Position numbers and translations under genes: made by a program. From the NCBI GenBank assembly GCA_018396995.1, contig JAGTQB010000002.1, forward strand, positions 1,503 to 65,502: DNA of 64,000 nt, written 5' to 3'. Source of the DNA: Candidatus Bathyarchaeota archaeon (GTDB lineage: Archaea; Thermoproteota; Bathyarchaeia; Bathyarchaeales; DTEX01). How positions within the stretch are numbered: the stretch's first letter is position 1; each line of letters opens with the position of its first letter. The notes beneath the pieces were generated by a model that worked only from the letters and a program-made list of their open reading frames with translations, did not search any database and was not told the origin of the DNA. Below are positions 43,490-54,508 of the stretch, piece by piece.

Positions 43490-44452
43490 CTATAAGCCTA
43501 GAATTTCCTCCTTAATGGCCCTATGGGTCTCCGAGATGGGTGCAACTGTATTCACGACATATATGTCCAGGAGATTGAAGAGGTTCATGAAGAACCTCCT
43601 TCTCAAATTCGTTTTCCGTTCATCTCTAACTAATAGATGTGGATTGCAAAAGTCGGAGTTCTCAACACATTTAAGGGCTTCGCTTGGTGATAGCCTGCTA
43701 AAGATTGTCTTATCCTCAGGATCACGCTTCAAAATTATGGCCTTTTTAAGGGTCGTCATCGGAATAATCTTTCCCCTCCCAACGATCCACCTAACATTTA
43801 CTATGGCTCTACCCATAGAATCAAACTCGGCTTTATCAACCAGCCTCTTATACTCTCCCCAAATCTCTGCTACATCTGCCTGGATATAAAAGTTCTTTTC
43901 TGACGCAAATGCAAGAGCTTCTCCCCCCATTAAGCGCACAAAGAACCAGTCGTCTGAGACAGCGCGCACCCCTTTAAGTCTTAAAAGCCCATAGGTATGC
44001 GTTGTTTTCCCCGTACCTGGTGGCGCCATTAGGCAGACCCCCTGCCCATCTATATCTATACATGCACCATGAACGGAGTTTATTCCATGCTCATCCTCCA
44101 GTATATCGCTCGCAACGCTAAGGGCTATCGATTTGACCCAACCATAGTAGTCCACGTTTATTAAGAAGGCTGTTTTAGAAAGCGGATCGTATAGAACCTG
44201 CATCCTCCCATCCGTCTCACTTGTAACTACTAGTCTACCATGGGAGCGAATGCTCGCTGACATGGGATAAAAGCTTTCCTCCCATCTCTCCTTCACATGC
44301 CTTTCATCAGTGAGGAGCTTAATACAGCAACCATAAATGTCAGCCTTAACTTCATAGAGAAACCGGCCACTATACTTCTCCATTAATTTATCCTTCTCCT
44401 CAATCGAAATTAATTTAACCTCATACTTCACAAGAATCCCCAAAATACACAT
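43490..44452 (-). CDS. HPr kinase/PEP carboxykinase-like P-loop protein of unknown function
   Basis: VHGACIDI.G.G..L.APPGTGKTT followed by VSDDW. Confidence 0.7.
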   Translation of the reverse strand: MCILGILVKYEVKLISIEEKDKLMEKYSGRFLYEVKADIYGCCIKLLTDERHVKERWEESFYPMSASIRSHGRLVVTSETDGRMQVLYDPLSKTAFLINVDYYGWVKSIALSVASDILEDEHGINSVHGACIDIDGQGVCLMAPPGTGKTTHTYGLLRLKGVRAVSDDWFFVRLMGGEALAFASEKNFYIQADVAEIWGEYKRLVDKAEFDSMGRAIVNVRWIVGRGKIIPMTTLKKAIILKRDPEDKTIFSRLSPSEALKCVENSDFCNPHLLVRDERKTNLRRRFFMNLFNLLDIYVVNTVAPISETHRAIKEEILGL

Positions 44453-45947: not shown

Positions 45948-46472
45948 GTGATCCCTTTGGAGCTTGAGATTATTAATGCCAAGATGAACCCCCTAAGTGA
46001 TGAAGATATTAGAGATATTGTTGAGATAGAGTGCCATCCATTGGTTAGGAAATGGCTTGTAGAGTACACGATTAAGGGATTTGAGGAGGAGCTTAGGGAG
46101 TACAAGGATTTCTTTAGTAAGCTACGCGGCAATGATAGGGTTGAGGTTTTGGTTGCAAAGATGAATAACCGGGTCGTTGGTTTCTTAGCCCTCTGGTGTG
46201 TTGATAATTGCGATGAGCAGGCAATGAGTATAGGGATAAGCGTTCACCCGGATTACTGGGGTAAAAATATAGCATCGACCCTCGTTAGGGAATCGATAAA
46301 GCTGGCTAAAAATAGGGGTGTGAAAAAGCTTATTATAGAGACTTTGGAGGAAAATGGTGCCATGAGACGAGTAGCGGAAAAACTTGGTTTCAAGCTTGAA
46401 ACAGTTAGGAGGGGGATAATTTTTAAAGATGGTGTATGCCATAATGAGGTTGCTTATACGCTGAGGATATGA
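45948..46472 (+). CDS. GNAT family N-acetyltransferase
   Basis: VVGF, IGISVHPDYWGKNIASTL (motif A), N.AM..V.EKLGF (motif B). Confidence 0.9.
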   Translation: MIPLELEIINAKMNPLSDEDIRDIVEIECHPLVRKWLVEYTIKGFEEELREYKDFFSKLRGNDRVEVLVAKMNNRVVGFLALWCVDNCDEQAMSIGISVHPDYWGKNIASTLVRESIKLAKNRGVKKLIIETLEENGAMRRVAEKLGFKLETVRRGIIFKDGVCHNEVAYTLRI

Positions 46473-46537
46473 ACCACGGTAACTCTAAAAATGTTAATAG
46501 AAAACTTTAATAGTTAGTGTATTTGGCATACATACTT

Positions 46538-46563
46538 ACTGTAGCACCATTTGGTGCTACAGT
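46538..46563. promoter_or_regulatory. Perfect 12-bp inverted repeat upstream of the kamA-like gene
   Basis: ACTGTAGCACCA-TT-TGGTGCTACAGT, downstream of a BRE/TATA-like AAAACTTTAATA (46501-46512) and 18 bp before the ATG. Confidence 0.6.
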
Positions 46564-46581
46564 GGGCGCGCGAAATAAAAT

Positions 46582-47697
46582 ATGGGGGAAGATTGGAAAA
46601 GTATTCTCCGGAAAAGCATTACTAGACCGGAGCAGATTCTTGAAAGGTTTAAGGTTGACATTAAGCCCATAAAAGCTGTTGCCGAAGTTTACCCAATGTT
46701 TGTATCAAAGTACTATTTCGATCTTATAGAAGAGGTTGATGACCCGATATGGAAGCAATGCATACCAAACCCACTTGAACTCCAGGATCCATATGGATAC
46801 GAGGATCCGCTTAATGAGGAAGGGGATAGCCCGGTGCCCGGTTTAGTGCATAGGTATCCTGATAGAGTTTTGATGTGTGTTTCAAATAGCTGCGCAACAT
46901 ATTGTAGATTCTGCACTAGGAAGAGGAAGGTTGGTAAGCCCTCCATTAAATTCTCGGACGACATTTATCTAGCGCAAATCAAATATATTCGTGAGAATCC
47001 AGGAATCAGAGACGTTCTTCTCTCAGGCGGAGACCCCTTTATGCTGCCGGATGAGAAAATAGAGTTCCTTTTAAAGAAACTTAGGGCTATTCCACACGTT
47101 GAGATACTGAGGATAGGGACTAGAGTTCCATGCACGCTGCCCCAGAGAATAACTCCAAAACTATGTAGAATCCTTAAAAAGTATCACCCATTGTACGTGA
47201 ATGTCCACTTTGAGCACCCACGTGAGATAACTGAAGAGAGCGAGCGCGCATGTGGATTATTAGCCGACGCTGGGATACCACTTGGAAACCAGTCCGTCCT
47301 ATTAAGGGGCGTTAACGATGACCCAGAGATCATGAAGAACCTAGTCCATAAGCTCCTTAAGATACGCGTTAGGCCATATTATTTATTCCAAATGGATCTC
47401 GTGAAGGGAACGTATCATTTTAGGACTAGGGTTGAGGTTGGACTTAAAATAATTGAAAGTCTCATTGGATGGACTTCTGGGCTAGCCGTGCCGAGGTTCG
47501 TTATAGATGCGCCGGGCGGTGGGGGAAAGATTCCAATCCAGCCAAACTATATTGTCTCAATAGATGATGAAAAAATTGTTCTAAGAAACTATGAGGGGAA
47601 GTTATTCGTTTATCCGCAGATACCTCCAGAGGGGCGAGACTACAAAGTTTATATGCAATACTTAACTCCTTTGAATTCCCCAGGTAAAGTGGCTTAG
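46582..47697 (+). CDS. KamA family radical SAM/PLP aminomutase (lysine 2,3-aminomutase-like)
   Basis: DPL.E, LVHRYPDRVL, CATYCRFCTRKR, LSGGDP, RIGTR.P..LPQRIT, NQSVLL.GVND, PYYLFQMD, VIDAPGGGGKIP (PLP lysine). Confidence 0.93.
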   Translation: MGEDWKSILRKSITRPEQILERFKVDIKPIKAVAEVYPMFVSKYYFDLIEEVDDPIWKQCIPNPLELQDPYGYEDPLNEEGDSPVPGLVHRYPDRVLMCVSNSCATYCRFCTRKRKVGKPSIKFSDDIYLAQIKYIRENPGIRDVLLSGGDPFMLPDEKIEFLLKKLRAIPHVEILRIGTRVPCTLPQRITPKLCRILKKYHPLYVNVHFEHPREITEESERACGLLADAGIPLGNQSVLLRGVNDDPEIMKNLVHKLLKIRVRPYYLFQMDLVKGTYHFRTRVEVGLKIIESLIGWTSGLAVPRFVIDAPGGGGKIPIQPNYIVSIDDEKIVLRNYEGKLFVYPQIPPEGRDYKVYMQYLTPLNSPGKVA

Positions 47698-47720
47698 GAG
47701 CACTGGGGTGCTTTTTTCTA

Positions 47721-48776
47721 ATGCCCCTCAGAGTTGGCTTAACATATAACCTTAGGAGAAAAGTTAAGCCTGGTGATAATTTACCAGAAGACTTCTATGT
47801 AGAGTTTGATGAGGAGAGCACTGTTAACGCTATTGCTTCGGCTTTGAGGAAGGGTGGATGTAGAGTAATAAAGATTGAGGCTGACGAAAACGCCTACATG
47901 AGATTACGTAGATGCAAGCCAGACATAGTGTTTAATATTGCTGAGGGGCTTCTTGGCGAAAGTAGGGAGTCGCATATACCAGTTATACTTGAGATGCTTG
48001 GCATACCATATACTGGCTCAGGCCCGGCAACCTTAGCTATATGCCTAAATAAAGCTATGACGCATAAGGTTTTAAGCGCATATGATATCCCATCACCGAA
48101 CTTTCAGGTTTTTAGACGAGCCGACGAGAACCTTGATAGTAGTCTCAATTTCCCGCTAGTTGTTAAACCATTACTTGAAGGTTCAAGTAAAGGGATTAGA
48201 AGCAGTTCTCTTGTGAGAGATGAGGAAAGTCTTAGGAGGCAGGTCTCATGGATTATAGAAAACTATCATCAGCCAGCCATAGTTGAAGAATTTATGCCGG
48301 GTAGAGAATTCACCGTTGGATTAATAGGTAATGATGAGCCATATGTCCTACCAATAGTTGAGATACAGCTTGACAAGCTACCAAAAGGTGTAAGCCCAAT
48401 ATACTCCTATGAGGCTAAGTGGGTTTGGGACACTCTTGAGAAACCCCTGGATATATTTAGGTGCCCAGCAGACATTCCACCTGAGCTTAATGAAGAGATA
48501 AGGGAAATAGCCATTAAAACCTTCGAGATTTTGGAGTGCAGAGATATATGCCGCATAGACATAAGGTTAGATGGGGATGGGGTTCCGAGGGTCTTAGAAG
48601 TCAATCCATTACCGGGACTAATACCAGACCCCGATGCCCACTCATGCCTACCAGAAGCAGCTAGGGCCGCTGGCTTCACATATGAAGAGCTTATCTGCAC
48701 AATCCTTTGGCAGGCCTTAAAGAGGTATGGGATCCATCACCTCTTCGTGAAGAGACATTTGGTGAAGCTTCCATAA
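47721..48776 (+). CDS. D-Ala-D-Ala ligase-like ATP-grasp enzyme (copy 1)
   Basis: VFNIAEG, LEMLGIPYTGS, VVKP..EGSSKGI, EEFMPGREFTV, RIDIR, LEVNPLPG. Confidence 0.9.
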   Translation: MPLRVGLTYNLRRKVKPGDNLPEDFYVEFDEESTVNAIASALRKGGCRVIKIEADENAYMRLRRCKPDIVFNIAEGLLGESRESHIPVILEMLGIPYTGSGPATLAICLNKAMTHKVLSAYDIPSPNFQVFRRADENLDSSLNFPLVVKPLLEGSSKGIRSSSLVRDEESLRRQVSWIIENYHQPAIVEEFMPGREFTVGLIGNDEPYVLPIVEIQLDKLPKGVSPIYSYEAKWVWDTLEKPLDIFRCPADIPPELNEEIREIAIKTFEILECRDICRIDIRLDGDGVPRVLEVNPLPGLIPDPDAHSCLPEAARAAGFTYEELICTILWQALKRYGIHHLFVKRHLVKLP

Positions 48777-48795
48777 GAGATCATCTTCCATGCAG

Positions 48796-49806
48796 CTAAG
48801 AACCTCTATCAGCCCTCTCCAGAGCAAACTCTAATATCTTTTTAATAAAGTCTTCAAAGGAGATTCCCGCAACCTTTAGAGATCTAGTGAATCCAGCCTC
48901 CGGGGATACGTCGGGGTTTGGGTTAACTTCGAGGACATACGGCTTTCCAGTCTTATCCTCAAACCGTATATCAACCCTTGCGTAATCCCGGCATCCCAGC
49001 ACTCTATAAGCCCTTAACGCCGCGTCCTCCACCTTACTTCTAACATCTTCATCCAGCTCCGCGGGGCAAACTGGTCTGGTCTTAATATATTCCTCGCTTT
49101 CCTTAAACCACTTAGCCTTATAGTCAACTATTTTCGGCTCATCTTCAAAATCAAAAATTATTTCAGATATTGGGAGAACGATTGGGCTCTCATTGCCAAG
49201 TATTGACACGTTAAATTCTCTTCCACTTATATATTCCTCTACGAGGGCTGGCTGCCTATAGGTATCATTTATATACTCAACTTGGCTCTTGAGCTCCATT
49301 AGGTTCTTAACGAAGCTGCGCCGAGTAATGCCTATGCTCGCATCTTCTCTCAATGGCTTAACAATTAACGGAAAACTTAGAGATACATGAGGCTTATCAT
49401 GTTTCATCATGATGCAGTAATCTGGCGTTGGCACACCATAAGCCTTCAAAACAGCCTTCGCTAGACCCTTATCTTGGCAGAGTCCCAGCGTTAACGGTGT
49501 AGATCCAGTGTATGGTATCCTCAGAAGCTCAAGGATAGATGGTATACACATCTCAAGGCTACTATCCCCCATAAAGCCCTCACAAAGATTTATGACGGCG
49601 TCCAGCTCACTGGTTTTTAGGGCCCTGATAACTTCCTCAATGTCATCCCCTACTGGAAGAAGGCAGTAATGGATGCCAAGTCTTTCAAGGGCCTCTTGTA
49701 CAGCATTTACCTGGTCTAAGATTTCTTCCTCAGCTAAGTAGTCTATTTCTTCGCCCTTCAGCGGCTTCATAGGCAAATTAAAGAGTATACCAACTCTAAG
49801 GGCCAT
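48796..49806 (-). CDS. D-Ala-D-Ala ligase-like ATP-grasp enzyme (copy 2)
   Basis: INLCEG, LELLRIPYTGS, IVKP.REDASIGI, EEYISGREFNV, YARVDIR, LEVNPNP. Confidence 0.9.
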   Translation of the reverse strand: MALRVGILFNLPMKPLKGEEIDYLAEEEILDQVNAVQEALERLGIHYCLLPVGDDIEEVIRALKTSELDAVINLCEGFMGDSSLEMCIPSILELLRIPYTGSTPLTLGLCQDKGLAKAVLKAYGVPTPDYCIMMKHDKPHVSLSFPLIVKPLREDASIGITRRSFVKNLMELKSQVEYINDTYRQPALVEEYISGREFNVSILGNESPIVLPISEIIFDFEDEPKIVDYKAKWFKESEEYIKTRPVCPAELDEDVRSKVEDAALRAYRVLGCRDYARVDIRFEDKTGKPYVLEVNPNPDVSPEAGFTRSLKVAGISFEDFIKKILEFALERADRGS

Positions 49807-49948: not shown

Positions 49949-50200
49949 TTATACCCTATAACTTGCTATTTCATCATCACTCAATGGCACTACAGTTATC
50001 TTCCTCTTCCCTATCTTTGTGTCTACATAATACTTTTACCTTGTAGTTATCGCCGCAATCTATGCAGGGGTTCATTTGGCTTCCATAATCATATTTCGGC
50101 TTGACGAGCATGTCTAAGTAGTCCTGACTCAGAAAGATGAAGTGCACTTTTATGTTGAAGTCCTTAGTAATCTTATCTGATAAAAAATTGTAGCCATATT
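49949..50200 (-). pseudogene. Remnant of a ThiI-like/PP-loop tRNA sulfur-modification protein gene with a large internal deletion
   Basis: Manual translation YGYNFLSDKITKDFNIKVHFIFLSQDYLDMLVKPKYDYGSQMNPCIDC (resembling the family's PKYGYG.NMNPCIDC motif). It joins abruptly to a frameshifted C-terminus-like KRKITVVPLSDDEIASYRV*. The upstream part lacks a plausible start. Confidence 0.6.
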
Positions 50201-54393: not shown

Positions 54394-54508
54394 TGGTGGG
54401 CCGGGCCGGACTTGAACCGGCGACCTTACAGAACCCTCTTAGAGGGTTTCTGCGCCTCCCGGTTCTCGCTGTCAGGCAGACGTCCTAACCATGCTAGACG
54501 ACCGGCCC
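54394..54508 (-). tRNA. tRNA-Val(GAC) with two introns (54456-54470 at position 36/37; 54426-54447 at position 44/45) and encoded CCA
   Basis: Acceptor stem GGGCCGG/CCGGCCC plus ACCA, D arm GTCT..GGAC, anticodon stem TCTGC/GCAGA with CT-GAC, T arm GCCGG-TTCAAGT-CCGGC. Removing the 15-nt and 22-nt inserts gives a 78-nt cloverleaf, and both inserts are flanked by BHB-like motifs. Confidence 0.92.

Follow-up and report, generated by a model that had tools for sequence, protein, structure and literature searches.

A candidate beta-lysine amide cassette of KamA, two Ddl-like ATP-grasp ligases and an acetyltransferase in Bathyarchaeia and other prokaryotes

Introduction

What does an archaeon make with a lysine 2,3-aminomutase, two ligases resembling D-alanine--D-alanine ligase (Ddl) and an acetyltransferase encoded side by side? 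The question is raised by a locus in a stretch of 64,000 nucleotides (hereafter, the window) of contig JAGTQB010000002.1, positions 1,503 to 65,502, from the assembly GCA_018396995.1 of a Candidatus Bathyarchaeota archaeon. Four genes are concerned: one for a GNAT-family acetyltransferase, kamA, which encodes a radical S-adenosylmethionine (SAM) and pyridoxal phosphate (PLP) enzyme, and two genes for ATP-grasp ligases, AG1 and AG2. An original prediction, drawn from the DNA of the window, had placed the GNAT gene upstream of kamA, AG1 23 bp after kamA and a convergent paralogue, AG2, behind it, and had proposed that the four genes serve a single beta-lysine pathway, distinct from both cell-wall synthesis and the AblA/AblB route. 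Open reading frames (ORFs) are found in this layout, with 109 bp between GNAT and kamA, 23 bp between kamA and AG1, and 19 bp separating the stop codons of the converging AG1 and AG2. The core of the proposal is strongly supported by synteny across phyla and by fusions of KamA with AG1 and of AG2 with GNAT.

Several known systems combine related activities. Ngg is a fusion of a GNAT with an ATP-grasp enzyme, PylC is an ATP-grasp enzyme whose partner PylB does not belong to the KamA family, and in the EpmB/EpmA system a KamA paralogue feeds beta-lysine to an ATP-dependent ligase resembling aminoacyl-tRNA synthetases, for elongation factor P (EF-P). According to three papers, the lysine 2,3-aminomutase AblA and the acetyltransferase AblB form the methanogen pathway to N-epsilon-acetyl-beta-lysine (PMC9128505), in the Ngg/AsnO pathway the N-acetyltransferase and peptide-bond-forming activities combined by Ngg yield the acetylated dipeptide solute N-acetylglutaminylglutamine amide (NAGGN) without the ribosome or a non-ribosomal peptide synthetase (PMC8070244), and PylB and PylC carry out a radical SAM isomerisation of lysine followed by the ATP-dependent joining of the isomer to a second lysine (PMC8225853). 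No description of the present cassette was found in the literature searched, which left out subscription journals and supplements. The matter is of some breadth, for a large enzyme family annotated “D-alanine--D-alanine ligase” sits with KamA in archaea free of peptidoglycan and in many bacterial phyla.

Linkage of the Genes Within and Beyond Bathyarchaeia

The class was surveyed through an even sample of 151 Bathyarchaeia genomes; something AG1-like was matched in 36 of them and something KamA-like in 25. An AG1 match at least 53% identical was found in 17 genomes, and in 17 out of 17 its neighbour on that contig was a KamA of at least 50% identity. Another genome had a partial AG1 only, and eight carried KamA paralogues (41–59% identity) without AG1. 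The orthologous KamA-AG1 pair is strictly coupled but patchy, being present in roughly 12% of the sampled genomes. When 21 distinct Bathyarchaeia loci were compared, KamA lay directly beside AG1 in every one of them, AG2 was adjacent in 15, and GNAT, on either side of the core, in 11.

Outside the class, an alignment-based scan returned 572 relatives, of which the best 80 were kept, giving 96 loci in all (one on a duplicate contig, three only distant). KamA was within the flank in 73 of these 96 loci, which come from many phyla, and a second ATP-grasp gene in 79. When the 1003 neighbouring ORFs were clustered without bias, the only groups to recur across phyla were the ATP-grasp family (89 loci), KamA (66 loci) and two clusters of GNATs (43 and 15 loci). 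The usual bacterial order is AG1-AG2-small ORF-KamA, the small ORF being a GNAT in 29/29 cases tested, and carriers include Ignavibacteriota, Bacteroidota, Chlorobiota, Acidobacteriota, Aminicenantes, Planctomycetota, Verrucomicrobiota, Desulfuromonadales and others. Among archaea, Nitrososphaerales have AG2 divergent from KamA-AG1 and Methanosarcinales have KamA-AG1-AG2. Absence of the gene set from other genomes would have counted against the original prediction; the neighbourhood analysis found the cassette in many archaea and bacteria.

A separate use of this ligase type is seen in the Bathyarchaeia family labelled f18, where 17 of 27 genomes carry a single AG1-like gene (41–48% identity; some ORFs of 543–560 aa) and 0 of 27 a KamA.

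Gene Fusions

Fusions couple the same partners within single proteins. Among the best 120 KamA homologues longer than 650 aa, 83 contain a Ddl-like domain and 26 a GNAT domain. The KamA-Ddl-like fusions come from Woesearchaeota, Nanoarchaeota, Thermoplasmatota, Methanocellales and a Desulfoferrobacter; in the one that was checked (P0272), the ligase half is of the AG1 type, with 46% identity and 317 bits to AG1 vs. 40% and 224 bits to AG2. On the side of the second ligase, four loci of Methanosarcinales encode an AG2 with a GNAT at its C-terminus (L093, from Methanothrix sp. isolate MAG 280, L086, L076 and L067); the proteins are 505–528 aa long, all four could be aligned, and Pfam confirmed two. 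In a library of 1.84 billion proteins, the AG2 profile matches at least 150 clusters (50% identity) with E <1e-100, and the best 150 matches include 14 proteins of 496–545 aa in which the AG2 match is N-terminal. Two of these 14 were tested and both end in a GNAT, one of the Acetyltransf_1/7 type and one of the Acetyltransf_3 type. The ligase partner of KamA in these fusions is AG1, and that of the acetyltransferase is AG2.

Two further architectures were encountered. The KamA-GNAT fusions (P0340 and 25 others, about 700–745 aa) belong to Chloroflexota, Dehalococcoides mccartyi among them, and follow a different route by joining the mutase directly to an acetyltransferase. A metagenomic protein of 944 aa (P0390) unites, in one predicted chain, Peptidase_S51, the family of cyanophycinase and dipeptidase E, with Ddl-like ATP-grasp and KamA domains; this may reflect a faulty gene call, or else point to a cleavable peptide as the product.

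The Aminomutase

KamA matches the solved lysine 2,3-aminomutase of Clostridium (2A5H) with E 2e-120. In the alignment, CATYCRFC corresponds to CSMYCRHC, the radical SAM CxxxCxxC motif, FQMD to YQCD with Asp293, and VIDAPGGGGK to VVDAPGGGGK with Asp330 and the PLP lysine, Lys337; we take Asp293 and Asp330 of 2A5H to be the residues that bind the epsilon-ammonium group of lysine. The radical SAM triad, the PLP lysine (GGGGK) and the two aspartates singled out in the original prediction are all confirmed by this alignment, and the Cys triad, Asp272, Asp309 and Lys316 (numbering of the window KamA) are kept in 65/65 cassette-linked homologues.

Among the family models, TIGR00238 is passed (302.7 bits, cut-off 199.2), and Pfam gives PF12544 (87.3 bits) and PF04055 (63.0 bits). 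The nearest equivalog is AblA (TIGR03820), for which KamA scores 484.7 bits, below the cut-off of 525.4; the glutamate, arginine and EpmB equivalogs are failed too, the last with 246.4 bits vs. a cut-off of 369.3. The protein is short: about 45 C-terminal residues, corresponding to the Zn-site region, are missing, and the Zn ligand Cys268 is kept in 0/65 linked homologues. It is the sole KamA-family gene above cut-off in the host genome. The substrate had been given as either lysine or arginine; the two aspartates, present in 65/65, and the proximity to AblA favour lysine over arginine and glutamate. By homology and retained substrate residues, KamA is assigned the probable conversion of L-lysine into beta-lysine.

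Two Non-Identical Ligases

AG1 and AG2 share 39% identity over 342 residues, in keeping with the paralogy foreseen, and match PF07478 with 129.8 and 130.2 bits, respectively, which corresponds to an ATP-grasp fold with the Ddl C-terminal domain. Among solved structures, Ddl is by far the nearest ATP-grasp family (3.4e-45, vs. 3.7e-18 for L-amino-acid ligase); AG1 matches E. coli DdlB (1IOV) with E 9.7e-28, PDB Ddl matches of both ligases reach E of about 1e-28, and an ESM Atlas look-up of AG1 returned only clusters labelled “Ddl family protein.” The two are the only Ddl-like genes of the host genome, further PF07478 matches being confined to one ORF of 1100 aa that is taken as carbamoyl-phosphate synthase.

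The E. coli DdlB sequence, retrieved by its accession, served as the reference for mapping residues in 36 AG1 and 34 AG2 orthologues. The residues for ATP, Mg and catalysis, namely Lys97, Lys144, Glu180, Glu187, Lys215, Arg255, Asp257, Glu270 and Asn272 (DdlB numbering), are kept in 36/36 AG1 and 34/34 AG2, the Glu270 position of AG1 being Glu in 31 and Asp in 5. Hence, both ligases are probably active and, like Ddl and VanA, whose fold family they share, would probably catalyze amide ligation of small substrates through an acyl-phosphate. The substrate side is different. DdlB residues His63, Ser150, Tyr216 and Gly276 presumably form the substrate site. His63 is replaced by Glu in 36/36 AG1 and 33/34 AG2, and Tyr216 by Trp in all sequences of both; Gly149, Ser150 and Gly276 are kept in AG1 and changed in AG2 to Asp (34/34), Ala or Gly (34/34) and Asp (33/34), respectively. 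In AG1, moreover, the Gly-rich N-terminal loop of Ddl gives way to an acidic segment with invariant Asp24, Glu28 and Asp30. These altered, more acidic substrate positions suggest that the ligases are non-redundant and suited to cationic substrates.

Could AG1 and AG2 nevertheless be ordinary D-Ala-D-Ala ligases that serve a cell-wall polymer? Their best family and structure matches are indeed Ddl. However, the scores lie below every NCBIfam Ddl cut-off (NF002378, 201.4 for AG1 and 182.5 for AG2 vs. 243 bits; TIGR01205, 164.1 and 165.1 vs. 245.65 bits), the replacements at Tyr216 and His63 and, in AG2, at Gly149, Ser150 and Gly276 are family-wide, the host is an archaeon with no peptidoglycan context around the genes, and these show both linkage to and fusion with KamA and GNAT. 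We give this explanation next to no credence.

A tree of 90 sequences (FastTree) sets an AG2 clade (97) apart from an AG1 clade, and each holds bacteria and archaea. Their internal branching is parallel, Bathyarchaeia with Nitrososphaerales and Aenigmarchaeota with Methanosarcinales being grouped in both. As judged from this tree, AG1 and AG2 are two ancient paralogue clades. A basal AG1-like subclade contains single genes of Bacillota, a Borrarchaeum gene and both halves of double proteins of Myxococcota, none of them linked to KamA.

The Myxococcota proteins, of about 700 aa, consist of two AG1-like ATP-grasp halves and are found in Myxococcus, Corallococcus, Archangium and Anaeromyxobacter (for example L114:8001-11653 and L178:8001-14233). 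The possibility that they are AG1-AG2 cassette fusions is ruled out by the position of both halves in the basal subclade, and KamA lies within 8 kb of such a gene in 0/80 loci. A gene of Peptidase_S58 (DmpA family) adjoins the double ATP-grasp gene in M. xanthus and stands two genes off in an Anaeromyxobacter. The AG2 profile also matches roughly 27 two-domain proteins that seem to be of this type; P0125 was the one checked. The Myxococcota concerned are available in culture and would allow work on a related ligase.

Two ligases that go together also invite the idea of a polymer. The enzymes would then act iteratively, perhaps as a heterodimer, to build a beta-lysine oligomer or polymer (a cyanophycin-like or poly-amide store, or an envelope part), with GNAT capping or regulating it. 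Such a product would suit two paralogues that are always co-inherited in the tree, the single protein in which Peptidase_S51, ATP-grasp and KamA are fused, the Peptidase_S58 gene near the Myxococcota double genes in both genomes examined, and the distant ATP-grasp match to cyanophycin synthetase. Against it, Ddl enzymes, whose reaction links two small molecules, are by a wide margin the nearest solved relatives, and Lys215 and the omega-loop region are retained; no primer, export or depolymerase gene is conserved beside the cassette, the host genome has no S58 peptidase, and the S51 fusion is one protein. We regard a polymer as improbable.

The Acetyltransferase

The window GNAT matches PF13302 (70.3 bits; Acetyltransf_3, its best Pfam family) and PF00583 (65.7 bits). 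It reaches no NCBIfam model, and AblB (TIGR03827) is not among its matches. Compared with the GNAT of the bacterial cassettes (type B), this type A protein shows 19% identity and an hhalign probability of 98%, which reflects generic GNAT similarity only. In Methanosarcinales, the GNAT domain of the AG2 fusions resembles type A (probability 96.4%) more closely than type B (33.6%). That two different GNATs have been recruited suggests that acetylation matters to the pathway; for the same reason, the position acetylated may differ from lineage to lineage. Synteny and the AG2-GNAT fusions speak for the acetyltransferase as a pathway member; its presence beside the cassette in only about half of the Bathyarchaeia loci and its lack of orthology to the bacterial GNAT are points against.

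An aminomutase beside an acetyltransferase raises the question of whether these two alone make N-epsilon-acetyl-beta-lysine, as AblA and AblB do, with the ligases as unrelated neighbours. In the methanogen genes, as in yodP-kamA of Bacillus, an aminomutase with both aspartates and the PLP lysine is encoded beside a GNAT and the product is a small acetylated compound; AblA is the model closest to the window KamA, and KamA-GNAT fusions of Chloroflexota make up 26 of the best 120 long KamA homologues. In a published analysis of Methanothrix metagenome-assembled genomes (MAGs), moreover, such genes are read as ablA with an unusually divergent ablB and synthesis of N-acetyl-beta-lysine is inferred (PMC9128505); that inference may rest on the present cassette. 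However, the cassette GNAT is not of the AblB family, and KamA is a short form. In the host genome the best AblB match reaches 25 bits (cut-off 205.1) and lies at another locus, no AblB match was found in 5/5 other cassette genomes tested, and the count was 0/4 in the Methanosarcinales genomes with AG2-GNAT. GNAT is adjacent in 11/21 Bathyarchaeia loci, vs. 21/21 for AG1, and the ligases are integral to the set, KamA being fused to AG1 and GNAT to AG2 elsewhere. A two-enzyme route of the AblA/AblB kind is therefore very unlikely in our judgement.

Other users of beta-lysine were sought by family searches of the whole host genome. EpmA/GenX gave at best 88.7 bits vs. a cut-off of 286.9, and BKACE and Peptidase_S58 gave no match; PF09043 (lysine 5,6-aminomutase) gave none either, but its control likewise matched no genome. 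The original observation that no EF-P ligase or lysine-fermentation gene lies near the cassette can thus be extended to the genome for AblB, EpmA/GenX and BKACE.

Proposed Function and Its Alternatives

On balance, and with somewhat more confidence than doubt, we favour a single biosynthetic module in which the four genes make a small N-acetylated di- or tripeptide-like amide containing beta-lysine. KamA would convert L-lysine into beta-lysine by radical SAM/PLP chemistry. AG1, which is translationally close to KamA and fused to it elsewhere, probably takes beta-lysine directly and would form a first amide bond via an acyl-phosphate intermediate, in line with ATP-grasp chemistry. AG2, with two family-specific Asp residues in its substrate pocket, would form a second, different amide bond, and GNAT, fused to AG2 in other lineages, would acetylate a remaining free amino group. 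Beta-lysine has one carboxylate and two amines, and so fits three modifying enzymes. Most plausibly, the product is a cytoplasmic solute or protectant.

Each known system resembles a part of this scheme. The succession of a radical SAM lysine isomer and an ATP-dependent ligation, as proposed for KamA and AG1, is found with PylB/PylC; however, the 60 best PDB matches of the AG2 profile do not include PylC, and the cassette has no pylD, pylS or pylT context. The AG2-GNAT fusions mirror the GNAT and ATP-grasp architecture of Ngg, whereas Ngg/AsnO uses glutamine substrates and one ligase rather than two, without an aminomutase; the two are likened here at the superfamily level. The cassette differs from EpmB/EpmA in that its ligases are ATP-grasp enzymes and not of the aminoacyl-tRNA synthetase type, its KamA is below the EpmB cut-off, and EpmA/GenX is absent from the host.

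Several points weigh against the proposed module. Links are shown at the level of genes, and each chemical step after KamA is deduced from them. KamA itself falls short of its nearest equivalog. AG2 is not adjacent in 6/21 Bathyarchaeia loci and GNAT in 10/21, and the cassette is patchy, being found in 17 to 18 of the 151 genomes of the class. GNAT types A and B are not orthologous, so that acetylation may differ as a step between lineages. Basal AG1 relatives (Bacillota, Myxococcota and Bathyarchaeia family f18) show no linkage to KamA. AG1-AG2 occur in a 0.7-Mb genome of Aenigmarchaeota that gives no KamA-family match, hence the ligases presumably can work when the cell makes no beta-lysine itself. 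Seven loci of one “Deltaproteobacteria” lineage show the order deoxyhypusine synthase (DHS)-like/agmatinase/pyruvoyl arginine decarboxylase-AG1-AG2-GNAT(B)-methyltransferase-GNAT(A), with no KamA nearby and with the ligase genes tightly spaced on the same strand (L061:4401-10917, L088:3962-10876, L034, L044, L056, L064 and L066). Finally, the carriers come from hot springs, groundwater and digesters, which does not point to salt stress.

In the three genomes of the “Deltaproteobacteria” lineage that were tested, KamA is encoded elsewhere (about 390 bits to the window KamA). The polyamine-gene neighbours indicate a possible link of the ligases to polyamines, and, together with the ligase pairs lacking KamA, are compatible with ligases that accept other amines. 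The proposal can then be widened: AG1-AG2-GNAT would be a general machine for capping di- and polyamines, with beta-lysine merely as its commonest feed. We consider this speculative and unlikely. Were it true, there would be an unseen class of widespread acylated or acetylated amides of beta-lysine or polyamines, for example beta-lysyl-polyamine or a fully capped beta-lysine tripeptide, forming a charge-tuned cytoplasmic protectant in phylogenetically scattered anaerobes and thermophiles; the operon with DHS-like, agmatinase and arginine decarboxylase genes and no KamA, and the pairs in DPANN, would be variants using other amines.

The same neighbours bear on another explanation, in which the ligases are an ATP-grasp counterpart of EF-P beta-lysylation or of RimK/LysX ligation and load beta-lysine onto a protein or another macromolecule, or add residues to beta-lysine already bound there. 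Beta-lysine is a known protein modifier through EpmA/EpmB, and ATP-grasp enzymes such as RimK modify proteins. The window GNAT is weakly RimI/RimJ/RimL-like (TIGR01575, 44 bits; PF13302), tiny DPANN genomes keep AG1-AG2 as a pair beside translation genes, and in one lineage the pair follows a DHS-like gene. Conversely, no target gene is conserved nearby across phyla, where only ATP-grasp, KamA and GNAT genes recur; similarity is to Ddl and not to RimK/LysX, the RimK Pfam family scoring just 22.6 bits for AG1; and a patchy distribution argues against a core role in translation. Macromolecule modification therefore seems to us about as improbable as a polymer, and the small acetylated amide of beta-lysine is retained as the preferred product.

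Identification of the product would extend microbial physiology by one new metabolite, or a class of metabolites, of the beta-amino-acid kind. It would correct the systematic misannotation of the ligases as Ddl and that of the mutase and GNAT as an N-acetyl-beta-lysine osmolyte pathway, as in published Methanothrix analyses, and would provide new ATP-grasp ligases accepting beta-amino acids, which are of interest in biocatalysis. The KamA-AG1 and AG2-GNAT fusions show which enzyme pairs to reconstitute first.

The Region Upstream of kamA

Upstream of kamA, a box resembling a transcription factor B recognition element (BRE) and TATA is followed, near the expected transcription start, by a perfect palindrome, GTAGCACC-N4-GGTGCTAC (46541-46560), and then, before the kamA ATG, by an invariant GC-rich block, GCGCGCGAAATAAAAT. 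The palindrome occurs once in the window vs. 0 occurrences expected. These elements are kept in 8/8 aligned close Bathyarchaeia loci, and the palindrome arms show paired changes. The palindrome is thus a candidate repressor operator or a candidate RNA/leader hairpin; no Rfam family matched the leader. Conservation of the upstream elements suggests that kamA-AG1 is a separately regulated unit.

A scan for sigma-70 promoters and terminators gave no more matches than in shuffled sequence, the model being one that does not apply to archaea. Contigs from a metatranscriptomic library cover kamA and AG1; they come from a relative about 97–98% identical and, as contigs, cannot prove transcription or rank genes, and gaps in their cover carry no information.

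Genomic Setting and Other Features of the Window

The host genome is a Bathyarchaeia assembly of 1.46 Mb, 98.5% complete. The archaeal origin proposed for the window is borne out by the locus comparison, in which the nearest relatives are all Bathyarchaeia MAGs, by near-identical DNA in hot-spring metagenomes from several studies, and by a tRNA gene in the window that probably carries an intron. Coordinates are given in Table 1. In the GNAT ORF, an in-frame ATG lies 12 codons downstream of the GTG start.

Table 1. Features of the cassette and of its surroundings (positions in the window)
Feature	Position	Strand	Remarks
HprK-like ORF	43490-44452	-	320 aa
GNAT type A (Acetyltransf_3-like)	45948-46472	+	174 aa from GTG; PF13302, PF00583
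kamA promoter/leader	46495-46581	+	BRE/TATA-like box, palindrome, GC-rich block, ATG
KamA-family radical SAM/PLP lysine 2,3-aminomutase, short form (by homology)	46582-47697	+	371 aa; 2A5H, TIGR00238
AG1, Ddl-like ATP-grasp ligase	47721-48776	+	351 aa; PF07478
AG2, Ddl-like ATP-grasp ligase paralogous to AG1	48796-49806	-	336 aa; PF07478
Small ORF with CxxC motif	49977-50147	-	56 aa
tRNA gene	54397-54508	-	112 nt; Rfam 46.3 bits

Upstream of the cassette, the window encodes hdrCB-like genes, hypF, the HprK-like ORF and hypD, and downstream feoB, feoA, a DtxR-like gene and nikR. According to the clustering of neighbouring ORFs, these flanking genes are not conserved with the cassette in other genomes. 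The HprK-like ORF lies between hypF and hypD; its only match, a weak one under the cut-off (27 bits), is to the C-terminal domain of HPr kinase, and a close homologue of it stands in the cassette flank of one other Bathyarchaeia locus (L004). The small CxxC ORF lies within the 430-bp gap between feoB and AG2. The tRNA gene, missed by ARAGORN, contains an insertion after the anticodon region that is probably an archaeal intron, and its CCA end is encoded.

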